13,222 bases of DNA from a virus. Lineage: Duplodnaviria > Heunggongvirae > Uroviricota > Caudoviricetes. Under the pieces are notes generated by a model. It worked only from the letters and a program-made list of their open reading frames with translations. It had not been told where the DNA came from and ran no database searches. Positions 316 through 13,222 of the stretch are shown here, one piece after another (position 1 is the first letter of the stretch; each line of letters opens with the position of its first letter). The translations under genes were made by a program, and so were the position numbers. The stretch lies in the IMG/VR virus record IMGVR_UViG_2654588181_000002, positions 1 through 13,222 of that record; one strand, written 5' to 3'.

Positions 316-326
316 GGGCAAATCCA
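1..326 (+). mobile_element. IS2-like (IS3 family) insertion sequence, 3' portion only; the outer terminal inverted repeat appears to be missing
   Basis: Frame 1 is open from position 1 to TAG 313-315 and encodes the C-terminus of an IS3-family DDE transposase (...[17 protein letters not shown]...). After GGGCAAATCCA (316-326) the sequence becomes AT-rich and unrelated to the IS2 terminal repeat as I recall it (no ...TTAAGTGATA...GGGGGCCAGTCTA). Confidence 0.7.
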
Positions 327-443
327 TTTAGAGCTATATTCTAGAGTATATGAGATACTATAAAGTTGAAGGAGCTATCATTAGAAAAACCATATGCTGC
401 TATAATTAGATGTCTCGCTTTTCATCCAATAACGAATTTTCTC

Positions 444-851
444 TTATAGATTGCTCTCTGGTTTTTTCGGCCACTCTGTATTTTTTATATCAACACGCAT
501 CAATAGTGCGCGATATTTTTTCCATGCCAGTAACAGTTTCGTTTCATCATCTGTTGCCATATCTAAATCAACCGCATCCTGAAGCGGTGCTATTACATTC
601 GTTGCCTCTGCTATCAGTGCAGATTTCTTTTCATTATTTATTAAGGCTAATTGTTCTGGTGTTGGAGAAGGACGGTCAACAATGACAGGGTGACCATTCT
701 CACCACAGGTAATCATTTTTGTTACACTCTGCGAATTAATCAGTGTTTTCCACTCTGATTCCGAGATTTCCACTGCATCATCAGGAATATTGGTGCCGTG
801 AAATTCAGTCGAATAAAATCCGTTTGTCGATGCAGAATAAAAATATGACAT
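444..851 (-). CDS. phage tail fibre assembly protein (Tfa family chaperone)
   Basis: C-terminal region ...IAPLQDAVDLDMATDDETKLLLAWKKYRALLMRVDIKNTEWPKKPE is the characteristic Tfa C-terminal domain. Start placed at the ATG at 849-851 (MSYFYSASTNGFY...) rather than ORF-track 947, because the upstream extension overlaps the tail-fibre gene in another frame. The upstream gene stops at 856-858. Confidence 0.8.
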   Translation of the reverse strand: MSYFYSASTNGFYSTEFHGTNIPDDAVEISESEWKTLINSQSVTKMITCGENGHPVIVDRPSPTPEQLALINNEKKSALIAEATNVIAPLQDAVDLDMATDDETKLLLAWKKYRALLMRVDIKNTEWPKKPESNL

Positions 852-855
852 TTCG

Positions 856-1506
856 TTAATATCCCATTGCAATGTAATACGCATCAGCAGATGAACCATA
901 TCCTGAACCGGGCGACACTGTAATATCAAATCCAGTGTTATGGACATTTGTCGCCGATACAGTCGGCTGCCCTGACGCGCCAGTAACGTTCAATGTAACT
1001 GTGACAGCAAGGACTCTTGAGAATGTCATCGGGAACCTCATCCCGTATGTTGAAGATACATTAGGGGAGCCATTCAACTGACCGCACTGTAAAATTAATC
1101 CAGACGGAAATTTTTGCGCAGCAGCCGTTGCGGTATTACTTGACGCGAACAGGCTCATATCAGGTATCTGATTCGCCCCTGTACCTACATTCCTTTTAGC
1201 CGCTTCTCCCAAACCAAGGTTTTCGAGAGCCGTTTGCACAGTGCCATCCGATTTGATATCGCCAAACGGATTCTTGCGGCTTAACAACAGCGCACGAAGC
1301 GCGGTAAGCAGCTGGTCATGCCGCCCCTTCTCCAGGCTGGCACCGGATGCCTCCACCACGCTGCAAAGCTCCTCCTGCAACATGTCAAAGTAGTCATCAT
1401 CCAGATCGGTGGCAGGTGTGCCGGTCTGGGGGTTACCACGGGTAAAACCGTTCTTACCCGCGCCGAACTTATCCTTCTGCGCGGTTTTGGTGTCTATACG
1501 ATGCAT
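856..1506 (-). CDS. phage tail fibre protein (short receptor-binding type, Stf-like)
   Basis: 216 aa. N-terminus [55 protein letters not shown]... and a Gly/Ser/Thr-rich C-terminus resemble short side-tail-fibre proteins of E. coli defective prophages (memory-based). It is immediately followed by a Tfa gene, the canonical stf-tfa arrangement. Confidence 0.6.
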
Positions 1507-1808
1507 GGATTACTCCGGATACCCCCTAGTGAATCTCCTGCACCATCAAGATGAAGGAGATAGATATTACTTGAGTTACCTTTTTCACCTTTCCGGGTGA
1601 CTTTTTTTACCAGCCCGGAATCACAAAGGGCCGCAATATGATTCATCACAGAACGTTTGCTAATCTCGCACTGGTCAGCAATATGCTGGTAGCTGGGCCA
1701 GCACTCACCCTGATCGCTGGCATTATCAGCCAGCTTGATCAGAACCAGTTTTCGCAATGGATTACCCACTCGAATTTTCATCGCTTTAACCATCAGCTCC
1801 ATACTCAT
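1494..1808 (-). CDS. small winged-helix/HTH DNA-binding protein (phage replication-initiator N-terminal-like, possibly truncated)
   Basis: 104 aa. Motif ...[47 protein letters not shown]... looks like the HTH N-terminal domain of phage replisome-organiser proteins. ATGA start/stop overlap with the upstream gene (1805-1808). The 3' end overlaps the tail-fibre start by 13 nt. Confidence 0.55.
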
Positions 1809-2041
1809 GCTGCACCTCCGAGATGCTTCATGTTTTTTCCGGAGCGAAAGGCTATAAGCGGCATACTGACGCGGTAATTACGGCCCAGCGGTTCACAAAT
1901 CACCTTCTGACATTCACGGTCAACCAGGCTGACACGTAGAACATGCCCTGCTGGCGTGGTGTACCACTGCCCAACTGTGGGTGTTGATATTTTTTTACGC
2001 TGAAATAAACGGTAAATGTTGAGGAGCAACGGATTAAGCAT
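1805..2041 (-). CDS. hypothetical small protein (78 aa)
   Basis: ORF whose start overlaps the upstream stop (ATG 2039-2041, upstream TAA 2034-2036) and whose stop overlaps the next start (ATGA at 1805-1808), suggesting translational coupling within one operon. No family recognised. Confidence 0.4.
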   Translation of the reverse strand: MLNPLLLNIYRLFQRKKISTPTVGQWYTTPAGHVLRVSLVDRECQKVICEPLGRNYRVSMPLIAFRSGKNMKHLGGAA

Positions 2042-2870
2042 GACGATGCCCTCCGCTGATATTCAGGAGACGGTGAATATGAAAATTAGCCTTATCCGCC
2101 AGACGAATACGTTCAGCTTGCAAGTTAAGAAGGGTTTCTACCAGAACCTGATGTGCCTGCGGATCCGAAAGAGTTACCTTGCGCAGAGCACGTAGTGCAG
2201 CTGTTACATAACTGAGTTTATGTAAGTCTTCATCATTCAGACGAGTGAGGGCTGGGACAGTAGCCATGATGGCAGCCTCCTTGATCGGTGAAATACTTCC
2301 ACCACCGGAAACGCCAATTTCGCTGGTGGTGAACTGAACGGGGTTGGCGTAACCGGTGATCAAGGAAACCGGCGCATCTTTCGATGCCCCCGCCCAGCCC
2401 ACCATAACTTTGATGTGAGCAAATGCGGACGATAAAAAAGACGCTGGCGCGTCATATATCGCCTTGATCAATTCCAGGACGCCAATCCCGGCACCCGCTT
2501 TATAAGGTGCCTGAACAGTGTAACGTCCCGGAATGGCAGAATCAATGTGCTGGTGGTCCTTCACACTCAACAAAATCACGCCTGAATTTCCACAAAGGGC
2601 TAAAGCACTCATGCGGGTAGTCTTTGCGAAGATAGATAACGCGCTGTGTTTCTGGCTCCCAACGAATAACATGAACATAAAGTCCTCTTCCGTCACGAAA
2701 CCAGCGGTTAAGTTCCTGCACAACTCGCCCCCCACAGTCAGGTAAAGTTCTCTGTGGTTACTTACAGCCAGGAGATTTGGTAATCTGCATTCATGCCGTA
2801 ACAACAGGTGTTCAGCGACGCTGACCACCAGCTGTTGCGACAAACGGTTATTTGCCGTTAAACTGTTCAT
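2034..2870 (-). CDS. hypothetical protein (278 aa) in the lambdoid replication-gene position; function unknown
   Basis: Long ORF with ATGA overlap to the upstream CII-like gene (2867-2870). No Walker A/P-loop, no N-terminal HTH and no other motif I can assign. Confidence 0.6.
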   Translation of the reverse strand: MNSLTANNRLSQQLVVSVAEHLLLRHECRLPNLLAVSNHRELYLTVGGELCRNLTAGFVTEEDFMFMLFVGSQKHSALSIFAKTTRMSALALCGNSGVILLSVKDHQHIDSAIPGRYTVQAPYKAGAGIGVLELIKAIYDAPASFLSSAFAHIKVMVGWAGASKDAPVSLITGYANPVQFTTSEIGVSGGGSISPIKEAAIMATVPALTRLNDEDLHKLSYVTAALRALRKVTLSDPQAHQVLVETLLNLQAERIRLADKANFHIHRLLNISGGHRHA

Positions 2871-3436
2871 GCGTTAGTTTCTCCACAACCAGAAGCAATC
2901 GACGCCACGACGCCCGGAGCTGCACACTCGCGGGCGTCATTACTTTCTGAAATGCAAAAGATTTTGTAGACCAGTGCTGCATGCTCCTGCAGCTTCGAAA
3001 TTGAGAGATACAGCTCGTCGTTAATTGCTGTCTTCTCATGCGGTTCCACTACACCGTCTTCGATTGCTGAACGAATCTGTTTTGAATAACTGCCGATCTG
3101 TTCAATGACTTCCAGCAGACGCTGGTTAATATCGGCGTTGTCCACATCCTCGACGTCAGGAAGAGACACAAAGACGCCATTTGCAGACTGCGCCACAGCG
3201 TCAGCAATGAAGTGAGTTCCACCAGCACGTTGCAAAATCATTGCCCATCCCAGCGGGAAAATCTGATCGCCATCGGCACGAAGGCGGTTAAATAATGCGT
3301 TCTCTGTTACATCCAGCCAGTCAGCTGCTTCAGCGTAACCACCCGGCAACTTTGCGATAGTTTTTCTGACAGCTTTCACGTACCACTCAGGCTGTTTTTC
3401 TACTTTCCAGTGATGCTTACCCACGGTTAGCCTCAT
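2867..3436 (-). CDS. phage CII-like regulatory protein (YmfL/YdaT-like)
   Basis: 189 aa, immediately downstream of the Cro-like gene on the same strand, in the cII position of a lambdoid immunity region. Resembles the e14 YmfL / Rac YdaT group (memory-based). No obvious Shine-Dalgarno upstream of the ATG at 3434-3436. Confidence 0.6.
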   Translation of the reverse strand: MRLTVGKHHWKVEKQPEWYVKAVRKTIAKLPGGYAEAADWLDVTENALFNRLRADGDQIFPLGWAMILQRAGGTHFIADAVAQSANGVFVSLPDVEDVDNADINQRLLEVIEQIGSYSKQIRSAIEDGVVEPHEKTAINDELYLSISKLQEHAALVYKIFCISESNDARECAAPGVVASIASGCGETNA

Positions 3437-3467
3437 CGTTCTGTGGTTAAAAATTGAAAGTGTTCTG

Positions 3468-3668
3468 CTAATCTTTCGGATAGATATCCGGTCTTAAGTC
3501 AGATTTCGTAATTGCACCTGACGTGCATTGCTCAAGTTTTTTAGCCAGCACAAAACTGGCTTTTTTATAGCCATTGAAAACCAGCCGTAAGTAGCCAGGT
3601 GTTGAGCCAACTTTTCCGGCCAACTCGCCCTGCTGTTCTTTGGTTAAAGAGTCCCAATACGCTTTCAT
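3468..3668 (-). CDS. Cro-like HTH regulator (YdaS/CroE-like)
   Basis: 66-aa product MKAYWDSLTKEQQGELAGKVGSTPGYLRLVFNGYKKASFVLAKKLEQCTSGAITKSDLRPDIYPKD, divergent from the CI-like gene. GGAGG lies 10 nt upstream of the chosen ATG (3666-3668). The longer ORF-track version (to 3971) would overlap the repressor gene and is rejected. Confidence 0.7.
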   Translation of the reverse strand: MKAYWDSLTKEQQGELAGKVGSTPGYLRLVFNGYKKASFVLAKKLEQCTSGAITKSDLRPDIYPKD

Positions 3669-3670
3669 AC

Positions 3671-3758
3671 AATATGTACCTCCGGTGTACATATTACATG
3701 ATTGAAATGAACCTTCAAGATACTTGTACCTTAACGGTACAAGAGTTTTAATTTCGTT
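3671..3758. promoter_or_regulatory. divergent immunity-switch control region: two inverted-repeat operators plus candidate pR (minus) and pRM (plus) promoters
   Basis: Operator 1 is AATATGTAC-N7-GTACATATT (3671-3695, perfect 9-bp arms). Operator 2 is CTTGTACC-TTAAC-GGTACAAG (3723-3743, perfect 8-bp arms). Candidate pR on minus strand: -35 TTGAAG (3719..3714), 17-bp spacer, -10 TAATAT (3696..3691), overlapping operator 1. Candidate pRM on plus strand: -35 TTGTAC (3724-3729), 17-bp spacer, -10 TTTAAT (3747-3752), ending about 7 nt before the repressor ATG. Confidence 0.6.
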
Positions 3759-4433
3759 ATGAAAACAATCCATGACATCCGGCGGTCTAACGCCAGAAAA
3801 CTGAGAGATGGTGTTGGCGGGAATTCTTCCTTTGCCACTATGATTGATCGCGAGCCAACCCAGACCAGCAGGTTTATGGGAGATGGTGCTACTAAAAATA
3901 TCGGTGACAGCATGGCACGACACATCGAAAAATGTTTCGACCTGCCTGTCGGATGGCTCGATCAAGAACACCAGACAACGAACATCACAAAAAAACCTGA
4001 TGTTTCAATCACTAATAAACAAATCACATTAGTCCCTGTCATATCATGGGTACAGGCCGGAGCATGGAAAGAAGTTGGATATTCTGAGGTTGATTTGAGC
4101 ACAGCAGAAACGTATCCCTGCCCTGTACCCTGTGGGGAAATGACTTATATCTTGCGGGTGATAGGTGATTCAATGATTGATGAGTACCGCCCGGGAGACA
4201 TGATTTTTGTCGATCCTGAAGTACCTGCCTGCCACGGTGACGACGTTATTGCATTGATGCACGATACAGGTGAAACCACCTTCAAAAGGTTGATAGAAGA
4301 TGGGACACAGCGTTATCTCAAAGCGTTAAACCCAAACTGGCCTGAGCCTTACATTAAGATCAACGGTAATTGCTCTATAATTGGTACAGTGATTTTCTCA
4401 GGAAAACCAAGAAGATACAAAATCAAAGCCTAA
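3759..4433 (+). CDS. CI-like prophage repressor (HTH + LexA-like S24 autopeptidase domain; CohE-like)
   Basis: 224 aa with an N-terminal HTH region and a C-terminal S24-type domain (VIGDSM... and FKRL Ser/Lys dyad context). Divergent from the Cro-like gene, and no Shine-Dalgarno before the ATG, consistent with a leaderless pRM transcript. Confidence 0.9.
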   Translation: MKTIHDIRRSNARKLRDGVGGNSSFATMIDREPTQTSRFMGDGATKNIGDSMARHIEKCFDLPVGWLDQEHQTTNITKKPDVSITNKQITLVPVISWVQAGAWKEVGYSEVDLSTAETYPCPVPCGEMTYILRVIGDSMIDEYRPGDMIFVDPEVPACHGDDVIALMHDTGETTFKRLIEDGTQRYLKALNPNWPEPYIKINGNCSIIGTVIFSGKPRRYKIKA

Positions 4434-4444
4434 TCAATGTTTAT

Positions 4445-4468
4445 GAACCTGCTTCGGCAGGTTTTTTT
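4445..4468 (+). terminator. intrinsic terminator downstream of the repressor gene
   Basis: ACCTGC-TTCG-GCAGGT hairpin (4447-4462, UUCG tetraloop) followed by a run of seven T (4462-4468), 12 nt after the repressor stop. Confidence 0.75.
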
Positions 4469-4472
4469 ATAC

Positions 4473-4505
4473 TTGACAATGTACCTTTGAGATACATAAT
4501 GTACC
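4473..4505 (+). promoter_or_regulatory. candidate early-left promoter (pL-like) with repressor half-sites
   Basis: -35 TTGACA (4473-4478), 16-bp spacer, -10 CATAAT (4495-4500). The ATGTACC motif occurs twice (4480-4486 and 4499-5505 region, second copy at 4499-4505), sharing the GTAC core of the operators at 3671-3743. Confidence 0.6.
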
Positions 4506-4582
4506 CAAGCGAAACAACGAACAGGCAGGACGCCCACGAAGTAGCCGCCTGGGGCATATGAAGTCCAGGATGATTCGTTAGC

Positions 4583-4608
4583 AACAAAAAAGCGCCTACA
4601 GGACGCTT
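4583..4608 (-). terminator. candidate intrinsic terminator on the minus strand, downstream of the 4845-5279 gene
   Basis: Minus strand reads AAGCGTC-CTGTA-GGCGCTT followed by TTTTGTTGC (plus coordinates 4590-4608 for the hairpin, A-run 4586-4591). It lies about 240 nt beyond the minus-strand gene's stop and inside the 5' leader of the plus-strand 68-aa gene. Confidence 0.45.
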
Positions 4609-4666
4609 AGCTCTTTAACAATCTGGTCCCCATCAACAAGTAACTGATAACTTGAGGAGATGTGAA

Positions 4667-4873
4667 ATGCACAAAACAGAACCCAAAATCGTCGCGCCTG
4701 GCTACACAGATGAGGAAATTTATGAGTGGATGACAAAGAAGCTGGCAGCTATAAACCAGCTTCGTGAAGTGCTGTCTTATCGACAGGAAACAATAGACTC
4801 CTTAAAAAAACTGGATCAGGAAATCACGGTTTTATCACAGGATGTTACTTTAGATATTGTGCAGACAAATTAG
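4667..4873 (+). CDS. hypothetical small acidic, predicted coiled-coil protein (68 aa), first gene after pL
   Basis: ATG at 4667 preceded by GAGGAG (4655-4660); the ORF-track 4652 start would be a TTG. Product MHKTEPKIVAPGYTDEEIYEWMTKKLAAINQLREVLSYRQETIDSLKKLDQEITVLSQDVTLDIVQTN. Not N-like (not Arg-rich). The 3' end overlaps the convergent minus-strand gene by 29 nt. Confidence 0.5.
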   Translation: MHKTEPKIVAPGYTDEEIYEWMTKKLAAINQLREVLSYRQETIDSLKKLDQEITVLSQDVTLDIVQTN

Positions 4874-5279
4874 GATCCCATTCATTTTCGTCAAAATCAT
4901 CAAAGTGATGAATTTGTGATCTCCAGTCTCGATAATCTAAAAATTTCTGGGCGGTTACGCTTATTTTATCAAGTGTGAGTTCATCCTGAATTGAAAGAAG
5001 AAGTTCATCAAATTTCATCTCATTAATCTGTTTTGGCATCCAGTGATGCTTCATCAGAATAAGGTGAACCAGAGCCTTTTTCCCATTCAACTGATTATAG
5101 GGAGTGCCGAATTTCTTCCGGTGCTCATGTAAGACAAGGTCCAAAAGAGTAAGTAATGTTGCCCTTGATTCAACTTTGCTTATTTCGACTGATGACACTA
5201 CCCCACTGATTTCAATGCCCCGATACTTTCCAACATTTTCACAGTGGGATTTGTACAGCGTATAGATATTACCGGACAT
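4845..5279 (-). CDS. hypothetical protein (144 aa), AT-rich antisense 'moron' gene; function unknown
   Basis: Clean 144-codon ORF opposite to all neighbouring early-left genes, visibly more AT-rich than its flanks, with an AGGA-like RBS upstream of the ATG (5277-5279) and its own candidate terminator. No family recognised. Confidence 0.6.
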   Translation of the reverse strand: MSGNIYTLYKSHCENVGKYRGIEISGVVSSVEISKVESRATLLTLLDLVLHEHRKKFGTPYNQLNGKKALVHLILMKHHWMPKQINEMKFDELLLSIQDELTLDKISVTAQKFLDYRDWRSQIHHFDDFDENEWDPNLSAQYLK

Positions 5280-5294
5280 TTCTTTTCCTTTTGC

Positions 5295-5343
5295 GTTGTT
5301 GGGGATAACCAGATTAACCGAATCCTTGTTGTTGGGGAATAAC
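5295..5343. repeat. two direct copies of GTTGTTGGGGA(A)TAAC, 33 bp apart, just upstream of the 4845-5279 gene
   Basis: 5295-5309 GTTGTTGGGGATAAC and 5328-5343 GTTGTTGGGGAATAAC. Position fits a regulator binding site or promoter element for the minus-strand gene. Confidence 0.4.
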
Positions 5344-5605
5344 TAGGTCCACCTCGCCTGATGTGGCTAAAAGCAGGCACATAACAGCTAAGTATTTTCA
5401 ACCAGAGAGAATCCTTAGCGTTGTGGTGAATGCGGCTCAGCGCACGCGGGTTAAGGTTGAGGCTGACAGTCGACCTTCTGTGGATACCCACCCGCCTGGT
5501 GTGCAACCTTCGCCAGGCACCGGGAGGCACCCGGCACCACAACTTTATGCTGTGTGTAGTCTTGGCGGTACCAGCTTGTACCCTTGCTTCCGGCTGGTAC
5601 CGTCC

Positions 5606-5704
5606 TTTTTACAAAACAGAGAAGAGCATCACCGGACGACGGGCTCATAACCCAATCCATCCGGGCGGCAGTCACCGCAGGTGTTCTTCTCTGTTTTGTG
5701 GAGA
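5606..5704. other. long imperfect palindrome / stem-loop within a GC-rich non-coding block
   Basis: Perfect 14-bp inverted repeat ACAAAACAGAGAAG (5611-5624) / CTTCTCTGTTTTGT (5686-5699), extendable with wobbles to about 20 bp, enclosing a ~49-nt GC-rich loop. No flanking U-run on either strand, so not a classical terminator. Confidence 0.4.
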
Positions 5705-5747
5705 AACTAACCGACCTTGCAGGGTCGATATGATGAGGAGCAGCAAA

Positions 5748-6110
5748 ATGGCTAGCGAACGCAGTACTGATGTGCAGGCATTTATCGGGGAGCTGGACGG
5801 CGGCGTATTTGAAACCAAAATCGGCGCAGTTCTCAGTGAAGTCGCTTCCGGTGTGATGAACACGAAAACCAAAGGTAAGGTCTCGCTCAACCTAGAAATC
5901 GAACCGTTTGATGAGAACCGAGTGAAAATCAAACACAAACTCTCATATGTTCGCCCGACTAACCGCGGGAAAATTTCCGAAGAAGACACCACCGAAACGC
6001 CGATGTATGTCAATCGCGGTGGTCGCCTGACTATTCTGCAGGAAGACCAGGGACAGTTGCTGACTCTTGCCGGTGAACCTGACGGAAAACTCCGCGCAGC
6101 AGGTCGTTAA
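5748..6110 (+). CDS. YfdP-like prophage protein (120 aa), function unknown
   Basis: Start at ATG 5748 (MASERSTDVQAFIGELDGG...) preceded by GAGGAG (5735-5740). The ORF-track extension back to 5430 translates to Arg/Cys/His-rich sequence typical of GC-rich non-coding DNA and is rejected. First gene of a block recalled as the CPS-53 yfdPQRST-like cluster. Confidence 0.65.
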   Translation: MASERSTDVQAFIGELDGGVFETKIGAVLSEVASGVMNTKTKGKVSLNLEIEPFDENRVKIKHKLSYVRPTNRGKISEEDTTETPMYVNRGGRLTILQEDQGQLLTLAGEPDGKLRAAGR

Positions 6111-6175
6111 TATCGTTTTTAATTAACTGATTATTTATCTCATCACTGAATATCTTTATATAGTGAGGACTTATT

Positions 6176-7000
6176 ATGTCTCAGAACTTAGACGCAACCG
6201 CAATTAATCAAATCCATGCCCTTATTTCTGCTCAGGGTGTTAATGAAATTATCAGTAAGATTGGTGCCGATGCTGTGGCATTGCCTGAGAATTTCCGCAT
6301 TCATGATCTGGAAAAATTTAATTTAAATCGCTTCCGTTTCCGTGGTGCGCTTTCCACTGCCAGCATCGATGATTTTACCCGTTATTCTAAAGATCTTGCA
6401 GATGAAGGCACCCGCTGCTTTATCGATGCTGATAATATGCGTGCCGTCAGTGTGCTTAACCTAGGTACTATTGATGAACCAGGTCACGCAGATAACACCG
6501 CCACACTCAAACTGAAAAAGACAGCACCGTTCTCTGCTCTGTTGTCTGTTAACGGCGAGCGTAACTCCCAGAAGTCACTAGCAGAATGGATTGAAGACTG
6601 GGCCGACTATCTTGTGGGCTTTGATGCTAATGGTGACGCTATTCAGGCAACAAAAGCGGCTGCGGCTGTCCGTAAAATCACGATTGAAGCAAACCAGACC
6701 GCTGATTTTGAAGATAATGACTTCAGCGGCAAACGCTCCCTGATGGAGTCTGTCGAAGCGAAGACCAAAGACATTATGCCAGTGGCATTTGAATTTAAAT
6801 GCGTTCCGTTTGAAGGTCTGAAAGAACGTCCGTTTAAATTACGCCTCAGTATTATCACTGGCGATCGTCCTGTACTGGTTCTGCGCATTATTCAGCTGGA
6901 GGCGGTGCAGGAAGAAATGGCTAACGAATTTCGTGATCTGCTTGTTGAGAAATTCAAGGACAGCAAAGTAGAAACCTTTATTGGTACTTTCACCGCCTGA
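6176..7000 (+). CDS. YfdQ-like prophage protein (DUF2303-type), 274 aa
   Basis: ATG 6176 with GAGGA (6165-6169) upstream. Product [30 protein letters not shown]... recalled as YfdQ-family. Confidence 0.75.
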
Positions 7001-7012
7001 TTTCATTACTGC

Positions 7013-7034
7013 AAATGCCCCTGCGGGGGCATTT
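7013..7034 (+). other. perfect 9-bp hairpin between the yfdQ-like and yfdR-like genes
   Basis: AAATGCCCC-TGCG-GGGGCATTT (stem 7013-7021 / 7026-7034). The only T residues are inside the stem, so it is a weak terminator at best; possibly an mRNA stability or processing element. Confidence 0.35.
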
Positions 7035-7127
7035 ATGGAAACGTAATTTACTCAATAATCGCCGGATGGTGAGGGATTCTTTTTACCAGAATTCAGCGCG
7101 GTGCAGCGCATATACGTGGAGAACAAA

Positions 7128-7664
7128 ATGTCATTTATTAAAACTTTTTCCGGGAAGCATTTTTATTATGACAGGATAAATAAAGACGACATCGATATTA
7201 ACGATATCGCGGTTTCCCTTTCAAATATCTGTCGCTTTGCCGGTCATCTTTCGCACTTCTACAGCGTCGCCCAACATGCGGTTCTTTGCAGCCAGCTGGT
7301 GCCGCAGGAATTTGCTTTTGAAGCGTTAATGCATGATGCAACAGAAGCGTATTGCCAGGACATTCCCGCACCACTGAAACGCCTTCTTCCTGACTATAAA
7401 CAAATGGAAGAAAAAATAGACGCCGTAATCCGTGAGAAATACGGGTTACCCCCAGTTATGAGTACGCCCGTGAAATATGCCGATCTCATCATGCTGGCAA
7501 CCGAACGCCGCGATCTCGGGCTTGATGATGGCTCTTTCTGGCCTGTACTGGAAGGTATCCCGGCAACAGAGATGTTCAACGTGATTCCACTGGCACCGGG
7601 CCATGCCTACGGGATGTTTATGGAACGCTTTAACGAGTTATCGGAGTTACGCAAATGCGCATGA
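7128..7664 (+). CDS. HD-domain phosphohydrolase (YfdR-like)
   Basis: 178 aa. H...HD metal-binding signature (...AGHLSHFYSVAQHAV... and ...ALMHDATEAY...). ATG 7128 preceded by GGAG (7117-7120); the ORF-track GTG at 7101 is rejected. Stop overlaps the next gene's start. Confidence 0.85.
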   Translation: MSFIKTFSGKHFYYDRINKDDIDINDIAVSLSNICRFAGHLSHFYSVAQHAVLCSQLVPQEFAFEALMHDATEAYCQDIPAPLKRLLPDYKQMEEKIDAVIREKYGLPPVMSTPVKYADLIMLATERRDLGLDDGSFWPVLEGIPATEMFNVIPLAPGHAYGMFMERFNELSELRKCA

Positions 7665-8017
7665 ATGTTTTCGAAATGGAAGGGTTTCTTCGTGGGAGAT
7701 GTGTACCGCGAGATCTGAAAGTAAATGAAACAGATGCTGAATACCTGGTGCGTAAATTCGATGCGCTTGAAGCTAAATGTGCAGCACAGGAAAACAAAGT
7801 AATACCAGTGTCAACTGAACTGCCACCAGCAAATGAAAGTGTTTTGTTATTCGATGCTAACGGAGAAGGCTGGCTAATTGGCTGGCGTTCTCTCTGGTAC
7901 ACCTGGGGACAAAAAGAAACCGGAGAATGGCAGTGGACATTTCAGGTCGGGGACCTTGAAAACGTCAATATCACTCACTGGGCAGTAATGCCAAAAGCAC
8001 CGGAGGCTGGAGCATAA
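7655..8017 (+). CDS. DUF551-like phage protein (YfdS-like)
   Basis: 120 aa, Trp-rich C-terminal half (...GWLIGWRSLWYTWGQKETGEWQW...) typical of DUF551. Start overlaps the previous stop (7655-7664); the stop overlaps the next start (8017). Confidence 0.7.
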   Translation: MRMNVFEMEGFLRGRCVPRDLKVNETDAEYLVRKFDALEAKCAAQENKVIPVSTELPPANESVLLFDANGEGWLIGWRSLWYTWGQKETGEWQWTFQVGDLENVNITHWAVMPKAPEAGA

Positions 8018-8322
8018 TGACCACTTTTACCGACAAAGAACTGATTAAAGAAATTAAAGAGCGTATCAGCAGCCTTGACGTGCGAGACGATATTGAGCGC
8101 CGTGCTTATGAAATCGCACTCCTATATCTGGAAGTAGAACCAGATGAACGCGAAGCTTATGAATTATTCATGGAAAAGCGTTTCGGTGACTTAGTAGATC
8201 GTCGGAGAGCAAAAAACGGCAATAACGAATACATGGCATGGGATATGACTCTCGGTTGGATCGTCTGGCAGCAACGAGCTGGTATCCATTTTTCAACAAT
8301 GTCACAGCAAGAGGTGAAATAA
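8017..8322 (+). CDS. hypothetical phage protein (YfdT-like), 101 aa
   Basis: Translationally coupled at both ends (ATG within ATAATG at 8017; TAATG at 8320-8324). Assigned as the last gene of the yfdQRST-like cluster by position and size only. Confidence 0.55.
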   Translation: MTTFTDKELIKEIKERISSLDVRDDIERRAYEIALLYLEVEPDEREAYELFMEKRFGDLVDRRRAKNGNNEYMAWDMTLGWIVWQQRAGIHFSTMSQQEVK

Positions 8323-8672
8323 TGGAGCCATACAGCCTCACACTCGATGAGGCCTGTCATTTTCTCAAGATATCCAGACCGACTGCCATTAACTGGATAC
8401 GCACAGGGCGTCTTCAGGCAACACGCAAAGATCCCACTAAGAATAAATCTCCTTACCTCACAACACGACAAGCCTGCATTGCGGCTCTTCAGTCTCCGCT
8501 GCATACTGTCCAGGTGAGCGCGGGTGATGGCATAACAGAGGAAAGAAAATGTCACTCTTCCGCAGAGGTGAAATATGGTACGCCAGTTTCACATTGCCGA
8601 ACGGTAAAAGATTTAAACAGTCTCTTGGAACAAAGGACAAAAGGCAGGCGACAGAACTCCATGACAAGCTAA
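8322..8672 (+). CDS. AlpA/Xis-type excisionase / DNA-binding regulator
   Basis: N-terminus [38 protein letters not shown]... is the AlpA-family HTH. ATG 8322 with GAGG (8311-8314) upstream. The ORF runs 116 codons and its last 124 nt overlap the integrase start in another frame, so the true C-terminus is uncertain. Confidence 0.7.
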
Positions 8673-9712
8673 AGGCTGAAGCATGGCGGGTCAGCAAACT
8701 TGGTGAAATACCTGATATAACGTTCGAGGAAGCGTGTGTCAGGTGGCTTGAAGAGAAAGCACATAAAAAATCACTGGACGATGACAAAAGCCGGATCGGA
8801 TTCTGGCTTCAACATTTCGCAGGAATGCAACTAAGAGACATTACTGAATCAAAAATTTATTCAGCAATGCAGAAAATGACGAACCGGCGTCATGAGGAAA
8901 ACTGGAAACTCAGGGCAGAAGCATGCAGAAAAAAAGGGAAACCTGTTCCAGAATACACGCCAAAACCAGCGTCCGTTGCAACGAAGGCTACGCATCTTTC
9001 ATTTATAAAGGCCCTACTAAGAGCCGCAGAGCGTGAATGGAAAATGCTGGATAAGGCACCAATTATTAAAGTGCCTCAACCAAAGAATAAACGGATCCGC
9101 TGGCTGGAGCCCCATGAAGCACAAAGGCTGATTGATGAATGTCCGGAGCCATTAAAGTCTGTTGTTGAATTTGCACTGGCAACAGGCTTAAGACGCTCGA
9201 ACATCATCAACCTTGAATGGCAACAAATAGATATGCAGCGCCGGGTGGCATGGATAAACCCGGAAGAGAGTAAATCAAACCGCGCAATTGGCGTTGCGCT
9301 GAATGATACTGCATGTCGCGTATTGAAAAAACAAATCGGGAATCATCACCGTTGGGTATTTGTGTACAAGGAAAGCTGTACCAAACCAGACGGAACGAAA
9401 GCGCCAACAGTAAGGAAGATGCGGTATGACGCAAACACAGCCTGGAAAGCGGCGCTGAGACGGGCTGGTATTGATGATTTCAGATTTCACGACTTGAGAC
9501 ACACCTGGGCAAGTTGGCTGGTTCAAGCCGGAGTCCCGTTGTCAGTGTTACAGGAAATGGGAGGCTGGGAGTCTATCGAAATGGTTCGTCGATATGCTCA
9601 CCTTGCACCTAATCACCTTACCGAACACGCACGGCAAATAGACTCGATCCTGAACCCATCGGTCCCAAATTTGTCCCAGTCAAAAAATAAGGAAGGTACT
9701 AATGATGTGTAA
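8549..9712 (+). CDS. tyrosine recombinase, phage integrase (e14 IntE-like)
   Basis: 387 aa. N-terminus [34 protein letters not shown] and C-terminal catalytic region ...[42 protein letters not shown] (R..H..R..Y). Stops 14 nt before the 3' end of the tRNA. Confidence 0.95.
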
Positions 9713-9725
9713 CTTATTGATTTTA

Positions 9726-9801
9726 ATGGTGCCGATAATAGGAGTCGAACCTACGACCTTCGCATTACGAATGCGCTGCTCTACCAACTGAGCTATATCG
9801 G
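9726..9801 (-). tRNA. thrW: tRNA-Thr (anticodon CGU)
   Basis: Minus strand reads GCCGATATAGCTCAGTTGGTAGAGCAGCGCATTCGTAATGCGAAGGTCGTAGGTTCGACTCCTATTATCGGCACCA: 7-bp acceptor stem, anticodon loop UUCGUAA, T-loop GGTTCGA, encoded CCA. Sits between proA and the integrase, as expected for a thrW-integrated island. Confidence 0.97.
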
Positions 9802-9854
9802 CCCTGAAAGGACATGTTCACGAACGTGAATCACGGTGGACAAGGTTAAAACTA

Positions 9855-9916: not shown

Positions 9917-11170
9917 TTACGCACGAATGGTGTAATCACCAATGCCGATCCACTTGTAAGTGGTCAGTGCTTCCAGCCCCATTGGGCCACGCGCGTGGAG
10001 TTTTTGTGTGCTTACCGCCACTTCCGCACCCAGACCAAACTGGCCGCCGTCGGTAAAACGCGTAGAGGCGTTAACGTAAACAGCGGACGAATCCACTTCG
10101 TTAACAAAACGCTGGGCGTTGCGCATATCGCGGGTCAGGATCGCATCGGAGTGTTGTGTGCCGTGTTCACGAATATGGGCGATGGCATCGTCAAGATCGC
10201 TGACGATTTTGACGTTCAAATCTAATGACAGAAACTCATCGTCATACTCTTCGGCTTTAACAGCAACCACCTTCGCAGGGCCTGCCTGCAACTGCGCCAG
10301 TGCAGCTGCATCTGCGTGTAATGTCACGCCGCTTTCCGCCATTTGTTTGCTTAATGCGGGCAGGAAGCTATCGGCGATGTTTTTATTCACCAGCAACGTT
10401 TCAACCGTATTACATGTGCTCGGACGCTGAGTTTTCGCGTTGACGATCACTTTTAATGCTTCAGCGATCTCTACACTTTCATCAACGTAAATATGGCATA
10501 CGCCTATACCACCTGTGATCACCGGGATTGTCGACTGTTCACGGCACAGTTTATGCAAACCAGCGCCACCACGCGGGATCAGCATGTCGATGTATTTATC
10601 CATACGCAGCATTTCACTGACCAGCGCACGGTCAGGATTATCAATCGCCTGCACGGCACCCGCCGGTAAGCCGCAGGATTTCAGGGCGTCCTGAATCACC
10701 GCCACCGTTGCAGCGTTAGTGCGACACGTTTCTTTGCCACCGCGCAGGATCACCGCATTACCGGTTTTCAGGCACAGCGAAGCGACATCAACCGTCACGT
10801 TCGGGCGCGCTTCATAAATCACGCCAATAACCCCCAGCGGTACGCGACGACGCTCAAGACGCAGGCCGCTGTCCAGTACGCTGCCATCGATTACCTGCCC
10901 CACCGGATCGGCGAGGTTACACACCTGGCGCACATCATCGGCAATGCCTTTCAGCCGTGCGGGCGTCAGTGCCAGACGGTCAAGCATCGCTTCGCCAAGG
11001 CCATTGGCACGCGCGTCAGCAACATCCTGGGCGTTAGCGTTGAGGATGATTTCGCTTTGTGCTTCCAGTTCATCGGCGATTTTTTCCAGCACGCGATTTT
11101 TTTCGCGGCTGGAGAGTTGCGCTAATTTATACGAGGCTTGCTTCGCGGCAATGCCCATTTGTTCCAGCAT
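9917..11170 (-). CDS. proA: gamma-glutamyl phosphate reductase
   Basis: 417-aa product [58 protein letters not shown]..., recognised as E. coli ProA. GGAG sits 7 nt upstream of the ATG, 11 nt after the proB stop. Confidence 0.98.
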
Positions 11171-11181
11171 CAGCCTGCTCC

Positions 11182-12285
11182 TTAACGGGTAATCATGTCA
11201 TCACGGTGAACGGCAACCGGGCCGTATTCATATCCCAGTATTGCATCAATTTCTTGCGAGTGGTGCCCGGCAATACGGCGTAATGCATCGCTGTTGTAAC
11301 GACTGACGCCGTGGGCGATATCGCGACCTTCGAGGTTGCAAATGCGGATGACTTCACCACGCGAGAAATTGCCAGTCACGCTTTTAATGCCTTTCGGCAA
11401 CAGGGAGCTGCCGCGTTCAAGAATGGCGGCAGTTGCCCCTTCATCTACCGTGATTTCACCCGCCGGCGGCGCACCGAAAATCCAGCGTTTACGGTTTTCA
11501 AGCGGAGTCGCCTGGGCATGGAACAGCGTACCGACGGAAATGCCTTCCATCACATCACCAATAACGCCCGGCTTGCTGCCCGCGGCAATAATGGTGTCGA
11601 TACCCGCACGGCAAGCCACGTCAGCGGCCTGCAATTTGGTACTCATGCCGCCAGTTCCGAGGCCTGAAACGCTGTCACCGGCAATCGCGCGCAGTGCGTC
11701 ATCAATGCCGTAAACATCTTTAATCAGTTCTGCCTGCGGATTGCTGCGCGGGTCAGCGGTATACAAACCTTTTTGATCGGTCAGCAGCAACAGTTTATCG
11801 GCACCCGCCAGAATCGCCGCCAGCGCAGAAAGGTTATCGTTATCGCCGACTTTAATCTCTGCCGTAGCGACAGCATCGTTCTCATTGATTACCGGAACGA
11901 TATTGTTATCGAGCAACGCACGCAGGGTGTCGCGGGCGTTCAGGAAGCGTTCACGGTCTTCCATATCAGCACGGGTCAGCAGCATTTGCCCGACGTGAAT
12001 GCCATAAATCGAAAACAGCTGTTCCCACAGTTGAATCAGTCGACTCTGCCCTACCGCTGCCAGCAGTTGTTTCGAGGCGATAGTCGCTGGCAGTTCCGGG
12101 TAACCCAGGTGCTCACGTCCGGCGGCGATCGCGCCCGACGTCACAATAACAATCCGATGCCCGGCGGCATGTAACTGCGCGCACTGGCGAACAAGTTCAA
12201 CGATATGGGCACGGTTCAGACGGCGCGATCCGCCTGTTAGCACACTGGTGCCGAGTTTTACCACCAGCGTCTGGCTGTCACTCAT
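11182..12285 (-). CDS. proB: glutamate 5-kinase
   Basis: Product [66 protein letters not shown]..., recognised as E. coli ProB. Start set at ATG 12283-12285 (367 aa) rather than the ORF-track 12372, whose 29-codon extension is not part of ProB. Confidence 0.97.
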
Positions 12286-12473: not shown

Positions 12474-12491
12474 CTGTAATATATCTTTAAC
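12474..12491 (+). promoter_or_regulatory. Pho box (PhoB binding site) of the phoE promoter
   Basis: CTGTAAT-ATAT-CTTTAAC, direct 7-bp repeats with a 4-bp spacer, about 80 bp upstream of the phoE ATG. A second Pho-box-like element in reverse orientation lies near 12431-12445 (TTACAGATTTAATAA). Confidence 0.5.
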
Positions 12492-12572: not shown

Positions 12573-12627
12573 ATGAAAAAGAGCACTCTGGCATTAGTGG
12601 TGATGGGCATTGTGGCATCTGCATCTG
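12573..12627 (+). pseudogene. phoE: phoE 5' fragment (signal-peptide codons 1-18), interrupted by IS1
   Basis: ATG 12573 encodes MKKSTLALVVMGIVASAS, the PhoE porin signal peptide, then runs directly into the IS1 left end at 12628. Divergent from proB as in E. coli. Confidence 0.85.
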
Positions 12628-12682
12628 GGTGATGCTGCCAACTTACTGATTTAGTGTATGATGGTGTTTTTGAGGTGCTCCA

Positions 12683-12958
12683 GTGGCTTCTGTTTCTATC
12701 AGCTGTCCCTCCTGTTCAGCTACTGACGGGGTGGTGCGTAACGGCAAAAGCACCGCCGGACATCAGCGCTATCTCTGCTCTCACTGCCGTAAAACATGGC
12801 AACTGCAGTTCACTTACACCGCTTCTCAACCCGGTACGCACCAGAAAATCATTGATATGGCCATGAATGGCGTTGGATGCCGGGCAACCGCACGCATTAT
12901 GGGCGTTAGCCTCAACACGATTTTACGCCACTTAAAAAACTCAGGCCGCAGTCGGTAA
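12683..12958 (+). CDS. insA: IS1 InsA (transposition inhibitor / N-terminal part of the InsAB' transposase)
   Basis: 91-aa product [91 protein letters not shown] with a zinc-finger-like CxxC...CxxC N-terminus. Confidence 0.95.
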
Positions 12959-13222
12959 CCTCGCGCATACAGCCGGGCAGTGACGTCATCGTCTGCGCGG
13001 AAATGGACGAACAGTGGGGATACGTCGGGGCTAAATCGCGCCAGCGCTGGCTGTTTTACGCGTATGACAGGCTCCGGAAGACGGTTGTTGCGCACGTATT
13101 CGGTGAACGCACTATGGCGACGCTGGGGCGTCTTATGAGCCTGCTGTCACCCTTTGACGTGGTGATATGGATGACGGATGGCTGGCCGCTGTATGAATCC
13201 CGCCTGAAGGGAAAGCTGCACG
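12934..13222 (+). CDS. insB: IS1 insB reading frame (partial; expressed as InsAB' by -1 frameshift at the A6C slip site)
   Basis: A6C motif TTAAAAAAC at 12932-12940. The -1 frame after it reads [96 protein letters not shown] to the window end. In this copy the insB frame has a TAG at 12907-12909, upstream of the slip site. Confidence 0.8.

Follow-up and report, generated by a model that had tools for sequence, protein, structure and literature searches.

Shigella chromosomes carry between 229 and 348 copies of insertion sequences (ISs), of which IS1 is the commonest in every Shigella species, and the copies vary greatly from strain to strain (PMC7373316). The expansion of IS1, IS2, IS4, IS600, and IS911 has given rise to IS-mediated pseudogenes in these genomes (Hawkey et al. 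2020, PMC7373316). The gene encoding the phosphoporin PhoE is among those affected, as Supplementary Table 1 of Chung The et al. (2019, PMC6811581) lists a phoE gene disrupted by IS2 in 341 Shigella sonnei isolates of a CenAsiaIII sublineage, and the disrupted gene is described there as stably inherited since about 1996. Porin loss by IS insertion in the Enterobacteriaceae is also represented by IS-disrupted ompC (as cited in PMC10714929). In Escherichia coli 2018-166 (NZ_CP075632.1), an IS1A copy (4193-4960 of the compared locus) precedes the phoE start codon by 5 bp. It is bounded by a clean 9-bp duplication, AGGAATGAA, which takes in the Shine-Dalgarno region, and the 351-amino-acid (aa) phoE open reading frame (ORF) is intact. 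Beyond ompC, there are other classic cases of porin loss by IS insertion in the Enterobacteriaceae. PhoE forms an anion-selective pore, is not expressed in phosphate-replete conditions, and is used as a receptor by PhoE-specific phages, TC45 among them.

The window analyzed here, meaning the whole stretch of 13,222 nucleotides (nt), is the entire contig FNIS01000058.1 of the draft assembly GCA_900103855.1, which is labelled Shigella sonnei. Near its right end, phoE is broken within the signal-peptide region by a copy of IS1. The best explanation is a simple transposition of an iso-IS1 element into the chromosomal phoE gene of an S. sonnei strain, producing a null allele, to which we assign a probability of about 75%. 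The features that define the locus are as follows.

8549-9712: integrase of a lambdoid prophage, now decayed, that is inserted at thrW.
9727-9802: thrW, tRNA-Thr(CGT).
9917-11170: proA, which together with proB and thrW fixes the chromosomal locus.
11182-12285, minus strand: proB, the divergent neighbor of phoE, in the same order as in annotated genomes.
12474-12491, plus strand: Pho-box-like PhoB site CTGTAATATATCTTTAAC, with 3 mismatches to the consensus CTGTCATAWAWCTGTCAY, preceding the phoE ATG by 82 bp.
12573-12627, plus strand: 5' residue of phoE, codons 1 to 18 and the first base of codon 19, the same as in E. coli UPEC-245U and many complete E. coli genomes.
12619-12627, plus strand: predicted 9-bp target site CTGCATCTG, based on the usual IS1 duplication of 9 bp (occasionally 8 bp).
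12628-13222, plus strand: IS1 (iso-IS1, IS1SD-like), positions 1 to 595 of 768, cut by the contig end.

The order of thrW, proA, proB, and the 5' end of phoE is the same as that in E. coli 2018-166 and UPEC-245U, where proA-proB-phoE-crl is annotated. By direct reading of the window, the ATG of phoE lies at 12573 on the plus strand. Alignment with the intact phoE of UPEC-245U shows perfect identity through 12627; past this position, UPEC-245U continues with TACAGGCTGCAGAA, corresponding to PhoE codons 19 to 23 (the signal peptide and the mature N terminus), whereas the window reads GGTGATGCTGCCAACTTACTGAT. The break therefore falls after nucleotide 55 of the coding sequence, a G that is the first base of codon 19 (GTA). 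A preliminary description had placed the IS1 element after codon 18; the interruption of the signal-peptide region is borne out, with the break itself one base later, inside codon 19. The IS1 left inverted repeat (IRL), which that description began at 12628, starts there indeed and matches at 23 of 23 positions; this 23-mer occurs once in the window and in none of 200 shuffled sequences (0.00 expected). The cessation of phoE homology and the beginning of IS1 exactly at the first IRL base are the signature of transposition.

The simple insertion is thus proposed to have placed an IS1SD-like element in the phoE coding sequence so that nucleotide 55 is separated from nucleotide 56, in the same orientation as the gene and 2 to 3 codons ahead of the signal-peptidase site. 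IS1 contributes GG and then TGA to the interrupted reading frame, giving a predicted product of 19 aa, MKKSTLALVVMGIVASASG*, with the TGA located in the IRL. Because translation from the phoE start would end there, within the 21-residue signal peptide, no exported porin is expected from the locus, and the 351-codon ORF of the 16-stranded porin is absent, the frame being only 19 codons long. Judged by its sequence, phoE at this locus is a pseudogene and a predicted null allele, whether it arose by simple insertion or by rearrangement, and phoE in GCA_900103855.1 warrants annotation as such. The gene is essentially single copy in E. coli: a single piece covers at least 80% of it in 5,361 of the 5,426 complete genomes, and the median number of places per genome is 1. 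From the 19-aa ORF and this normally single-copy state, it is reasonable to expect that the strain makes no PhoE. Such a strain should lack the anion-selective pore, PhoE-dependent uptake, and adsorption of PhoE-specific phages.

The phoE signal-peptide codons contain GGTGATG at 12599 to 12605, a motif identical to the initial 7 nt of the IRL. The insertion point follows 23 bp downstream of this motif, and the match may be due to chance. IS1 is reported to insert preferentially near sequences that resemble its ends, a tendency that may account for the motif.

The visible part of the element contains the following features.

12628-12650, plus strand: IS1 left terminal inverted repeat.
12635-12662, plus strand: promoter-like CTGCCA-16-TATGAT (sigma-70-like), overlapping the IRL.
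12683-12958, plus strand: insA, intact, 91 aa with a GTG start, one residue different from the IS1A InsA.
12932-12940, plus strand: A6C slippery site TTAAAAAAC at IS1 position 305, for the programmed -1 frameshift that yields the InsAB' transposase.
12937-13222, plus strand: insB' frame, -1 relative to insA and open to the contig end, with Pfam domain DDE_Tnp_IS1.

Many enterobacterial plasmids carry copies annotated as IS1SD family that share 99.7% identity with the IS1 part, which differs from an IS1A copy at 6 positions over 595 bp. Because IS1 is repeated in the genome, the contig may present a consensus sequence here that combines more than one copy. The CTGCCA-16-TATGAT sequence is located at what we take to be the position of the insA promoter. 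The exact InsA protein of the window is present in public collections under the name IS1 InsA, and it contains the Pfam domains Zn_ribbon_InsA and HTH_Tnp_IS1 (PF03811 and PF12759), both above cut-offs. The conceptual InsAB' fusion is free of stops within the window, differs from that of IS1A by 2 residues, and matches DDE_Tnp_IS1 (PF03400) with an E value of 7e-44 over profile positions 1 to 79 of 131, the C-terminal part lying beyond the contig. As the preliminary description held, the transposase genes run in the same direction as phoE, with insA, the slippery site, and the insB' frame all on the plus strand. The visible part of this IS1 copy is thus apparently functional, as far as its sequence can indicate.

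The region upstream of phoE is unaltered. The 255 nt comprising 200 nt of upstream and 55 nt of coding sequence are base-for-base equal to those of four loci with a 351-aa PhoE, and positions 1 to 248 of the junction query match at 100% in dozens of complete genomes annotated with phosphoporin PhoE. At the sequence level, this upholds the earlier statement that the Pho box and promoter are intact. Matches to the Pho-box consensus number 3 in the whole window, compared with 0.03 expected from shuffled sequences; the two others, each also with 3 mismatches, lie inside the prophage at 4823 to 4840 (minus strand) and 7218 to 7235 (plus strand). Under phosphate limitation, PhoB would still switch on the phoE promoter, and the transcripts would enter IS1. 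The phoE promoter, ribosome-binding site, and start codon lie 55 bp upstream of the co-oriented element, so phosphate starvation could conceivably drive read-through transcription of insA and insAB' from this copy, tying the levels of the transposase and the InsA repressor to the Pho regulon. If this were true, the genome-wide mobility of IS1 in trans would be coupled to the Pho regulon in the strain. The one thing that speaks for such Pho-controlled expression is the geometry, and we consider it very unlikely.

The left junction between phoE and IS1 was searched for in several collections. It was found in none of the 5,426 complete RefSeq E. coli genomes; the single match, of 84% coverage, came from strain 2018-166 and was set aside as the other IS1 insertion, upstream of the ATG. 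The GTDB representative genomes and JGI metagenome contigs likewise gave no match to the left junction. Approximately 30 loci from related strains, which share the same ProB, YfdT, or Ash-family alleles, all carry a 351-aa phoE, and these include strains that share the thrW prophage at over 99.8% identity. Among the relatives found through the YfdT or Ash-family protein, only intact phoE was seen and no disrupted copy. Of the other proteins looked up exactly as a route to the right junction, ProB and a 185-aa prophage protein proved too widespread to be of use, and a chimeric 104-aa prophage ORF led to the source contig FNIS01000058.1 and to nothing longer. With the junction missing from 5,426 genomes and some 30 related loci intact, the insertion appears to be recent and confined to the strain or a narrow sublineage. 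In the literature searched, no report of an IS1 insertion in Shigella phoE corresponding to the nucleotide 55/56 allele was found.

Since the window is a whole contig, the assembly breaks off at 13222, within IS1 at position 595 of 768. The contig stopping in IS1 leaves the right end of the element, the target duplication, and the remaining approximately 1 kb of phoE outside the sequence at hand. On the left, the contig terminates in the right end of an IS2 copy, with an ORF at 49 to 315 encoding the C-terminal part of an rve_3 transposase and a terminal sequence, ...GGGGCAAATCCA / ...TGGAAATATAGGGGCAAATCCA, that finishes at 326. A contig flanked by IS2 and IS1 is the expected product of the short-read assembly of an IS-rich Shigella genome, and the two ends offer an example of how IS copies break up such assemblies. 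If IS1 inserted simply, its unseen right end is most probably followed by the 9-bp duplication CTGCATCTG, with an expected flank of CTGCATCTG-TACAGGCTGCAG, and the right junction would read ...AAGTTGGAGTCATTACC-CTGCATCTG-TACAGGCTGCAGAA...; the rest of phoE is most probably carried by a different contig of GCA_900103855.1.

A different fate of the right side would follow if the IS1 end at 12628 were the remnant of an IS1-mediated rearrangement, such as an adjacent deletion, an inversion, or recombination between IS1 copies. The right end of IS1 would then abut unrelated DNA, with the 3' part of phoE deleted or located elsewhere. The contig stops inside IS1, so that nothing is visible beyond it, and Shigella genomes contain hundreds of IS copies (PMC7373316). 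The same contig has the IS2 end and a prophage that has lost a large internal segment, which mark the region as prone to rearrangement. Searches for the right junction were all negative: a DNA pattern of the junction that allowed a variable duplication length had 0 matches in the genome and metagenome collections, and none of ten guessed edge-partial proteins spanning the IS1 right inverted repeat, the duplication, and phoE was present in the protein collection. However, the collections searched lack the left junction too, so these negative results say little. In addition, simple insertion with a 9-bp duplication is the usual outcome of IS1 transposition and is seen beside phoE in 2018-166. 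S. sonnei assemblies also keep a 3' fragment of phoE from Met41 onward, although its origin is ambiguous. We therefore regard a rearrangement as an unlikely, though not negligible, alternative.

This 3' fragment is a 311-aa protein that begins at Met41, is named S. sonnei PhoE in assemblies of that species, and occurs on 50 contigs. Its allele is that of the closest relative; a fragment of this kind is the ORF expected of a gene caller after any disruption before codon 41. As proof of a simple insertion, it was set aside, since the published IS2 disruption of phoE is an equally possible source and the fragment may belong to that IS2-disrupted lineage. In the public protein collection, many PhoE entries from E. 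coli, S. sonnei, and Shigella boydii assemblies are N-terminally truncated, with lengths of 311, 319, 296, 270, and 129 aa (cluster P0001-P0005, P0010, and P0012-P0014), which suggests that the 5' part of phoE has been disrupted repeatedly within the E. coli/Shigella complex. When the right junction of a simple insertion is modelled, the frame leaving IS1 has a stop 20 codons inside the element, and Met41 has no in-frame ATG, GTG, or TTG ahead of it. With no start codon before Met41, a downstream product would be without a signal peptide, and IS1-driven expression of the downstream remnant was accordingly rejected, for the modelled junction, as a route to a functional porin.

A junction that is not fixed, either as an assembly chimera of phoE reads and a collapsed IS1 repeat or as an insertion present in a subpopulation (e.g., from laboratory passage), is very unlikely. 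In its favor, the contig ends in a multicopy repeat, where assemblers extend by repeat resolution, and IS differences between near-identical isolates are seen in a contig from run SRR27723771 that is without the IS2 junction. Against it, phoE gives way to IS1 precisely where the IS1 terminal repeat starts, unlike in a random chimera, and a de Bruijn assembler needs junction-spanning reads to build a junction.

The rest of the contig provides further observations on the strain. The SRR27723771 contig, a Logan assembly, is 100% identical to window positions 325 to 8358 (8,034 bp), and in place of IS2 it has a 506-aa ORF and a GtrB-like glycosyltransferase gene (PF00535). Its lack of the IS2 junction indicates that a near-identical isolate does not have the IS2 copy of the window, and from its sequence, gtr-like O-antigen modification genes are part of the prophage remnant. 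The prophage at thrW is what a deletion has left behind: homology to the full-length relatives (UPEC-245U, L018, and L023) starts at 1520, placing the junction at 1519/1520. To the left of 1520, there are only a C-terminal fragment of the tail fiber (856 to 1506) and a tail-fiber assembly gene (444 to 899), so the whole set of late genes that separates the tail fiber from the replication gene is gone. The deletion created a chimeric 104-aa helix-turn-helix (HTH) ORF (1494 to 1808), which is found on 3 contigs only in the public collection; this protein (SDP31196.1) is labelled Shigella sonnei by NCBI. Compared with UPEC-245U, the closest complete genome, the window has two gaps, one of 7 bp at 5525 and the other of 1 bp at 4594. 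The 7-bp difference lies in a gene annotated as frameshifted in UPEC-245U, and through it the window gains a 226-aa ORF (5430 to 6110) that reads in frame into yfdP.

Among the known systems, the interrupted phoE compares most directly with the IS pseudogenes of Shigella (PMC7373316), with which it shares the organism label, the element IS1, and the strain- or lineage-specific interruption of an E. coli chromosomal gene; unlike the catalogued cases, the nucleotide 55/56 site is not found in the literature searched or in the 5,426 complete E. coli genomes. The phoE::IS2 allele tabulated for CenAsiaIII (PMC6811581) involves the same gene, the same species, and inactivation by an IS, but the element listed there is IS2 rather than IS1, which makes the two independent events. 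Together, they suggest that PhoE is dispensable and repeatedly lost in the host-restricted S. sonnei. Strain 2018-166 has an independent IS1 insertion at the same locus and in the same orientation, although its copy is an IS1A variant (6 differences over 595 bp) in the phoE leader that spares the ORF, whereas the copy in the window is IS1SD-like and lies within the coding sequence. As in IS-disrupted ompC and the other classic cases, an outer-membrane porin gene is knocked out by an IS; whereas those losses are usually selected by antibiotics or phages, no selective agent is evident for phoE here. The insertion would be one of the hundreds of IS events behind the decay of Shigella genomes and adds one more IS1-made pseudogene to the reductive evolution of S. 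sonnei, with little importance beyond the annotation of the strain. The phoE gene of the window is a standard IS1 pseudogene and an ordinary case of Shigella decay, in which only the specific nucleotide 55/56 allele is unmatched in the literature and genomes searched.
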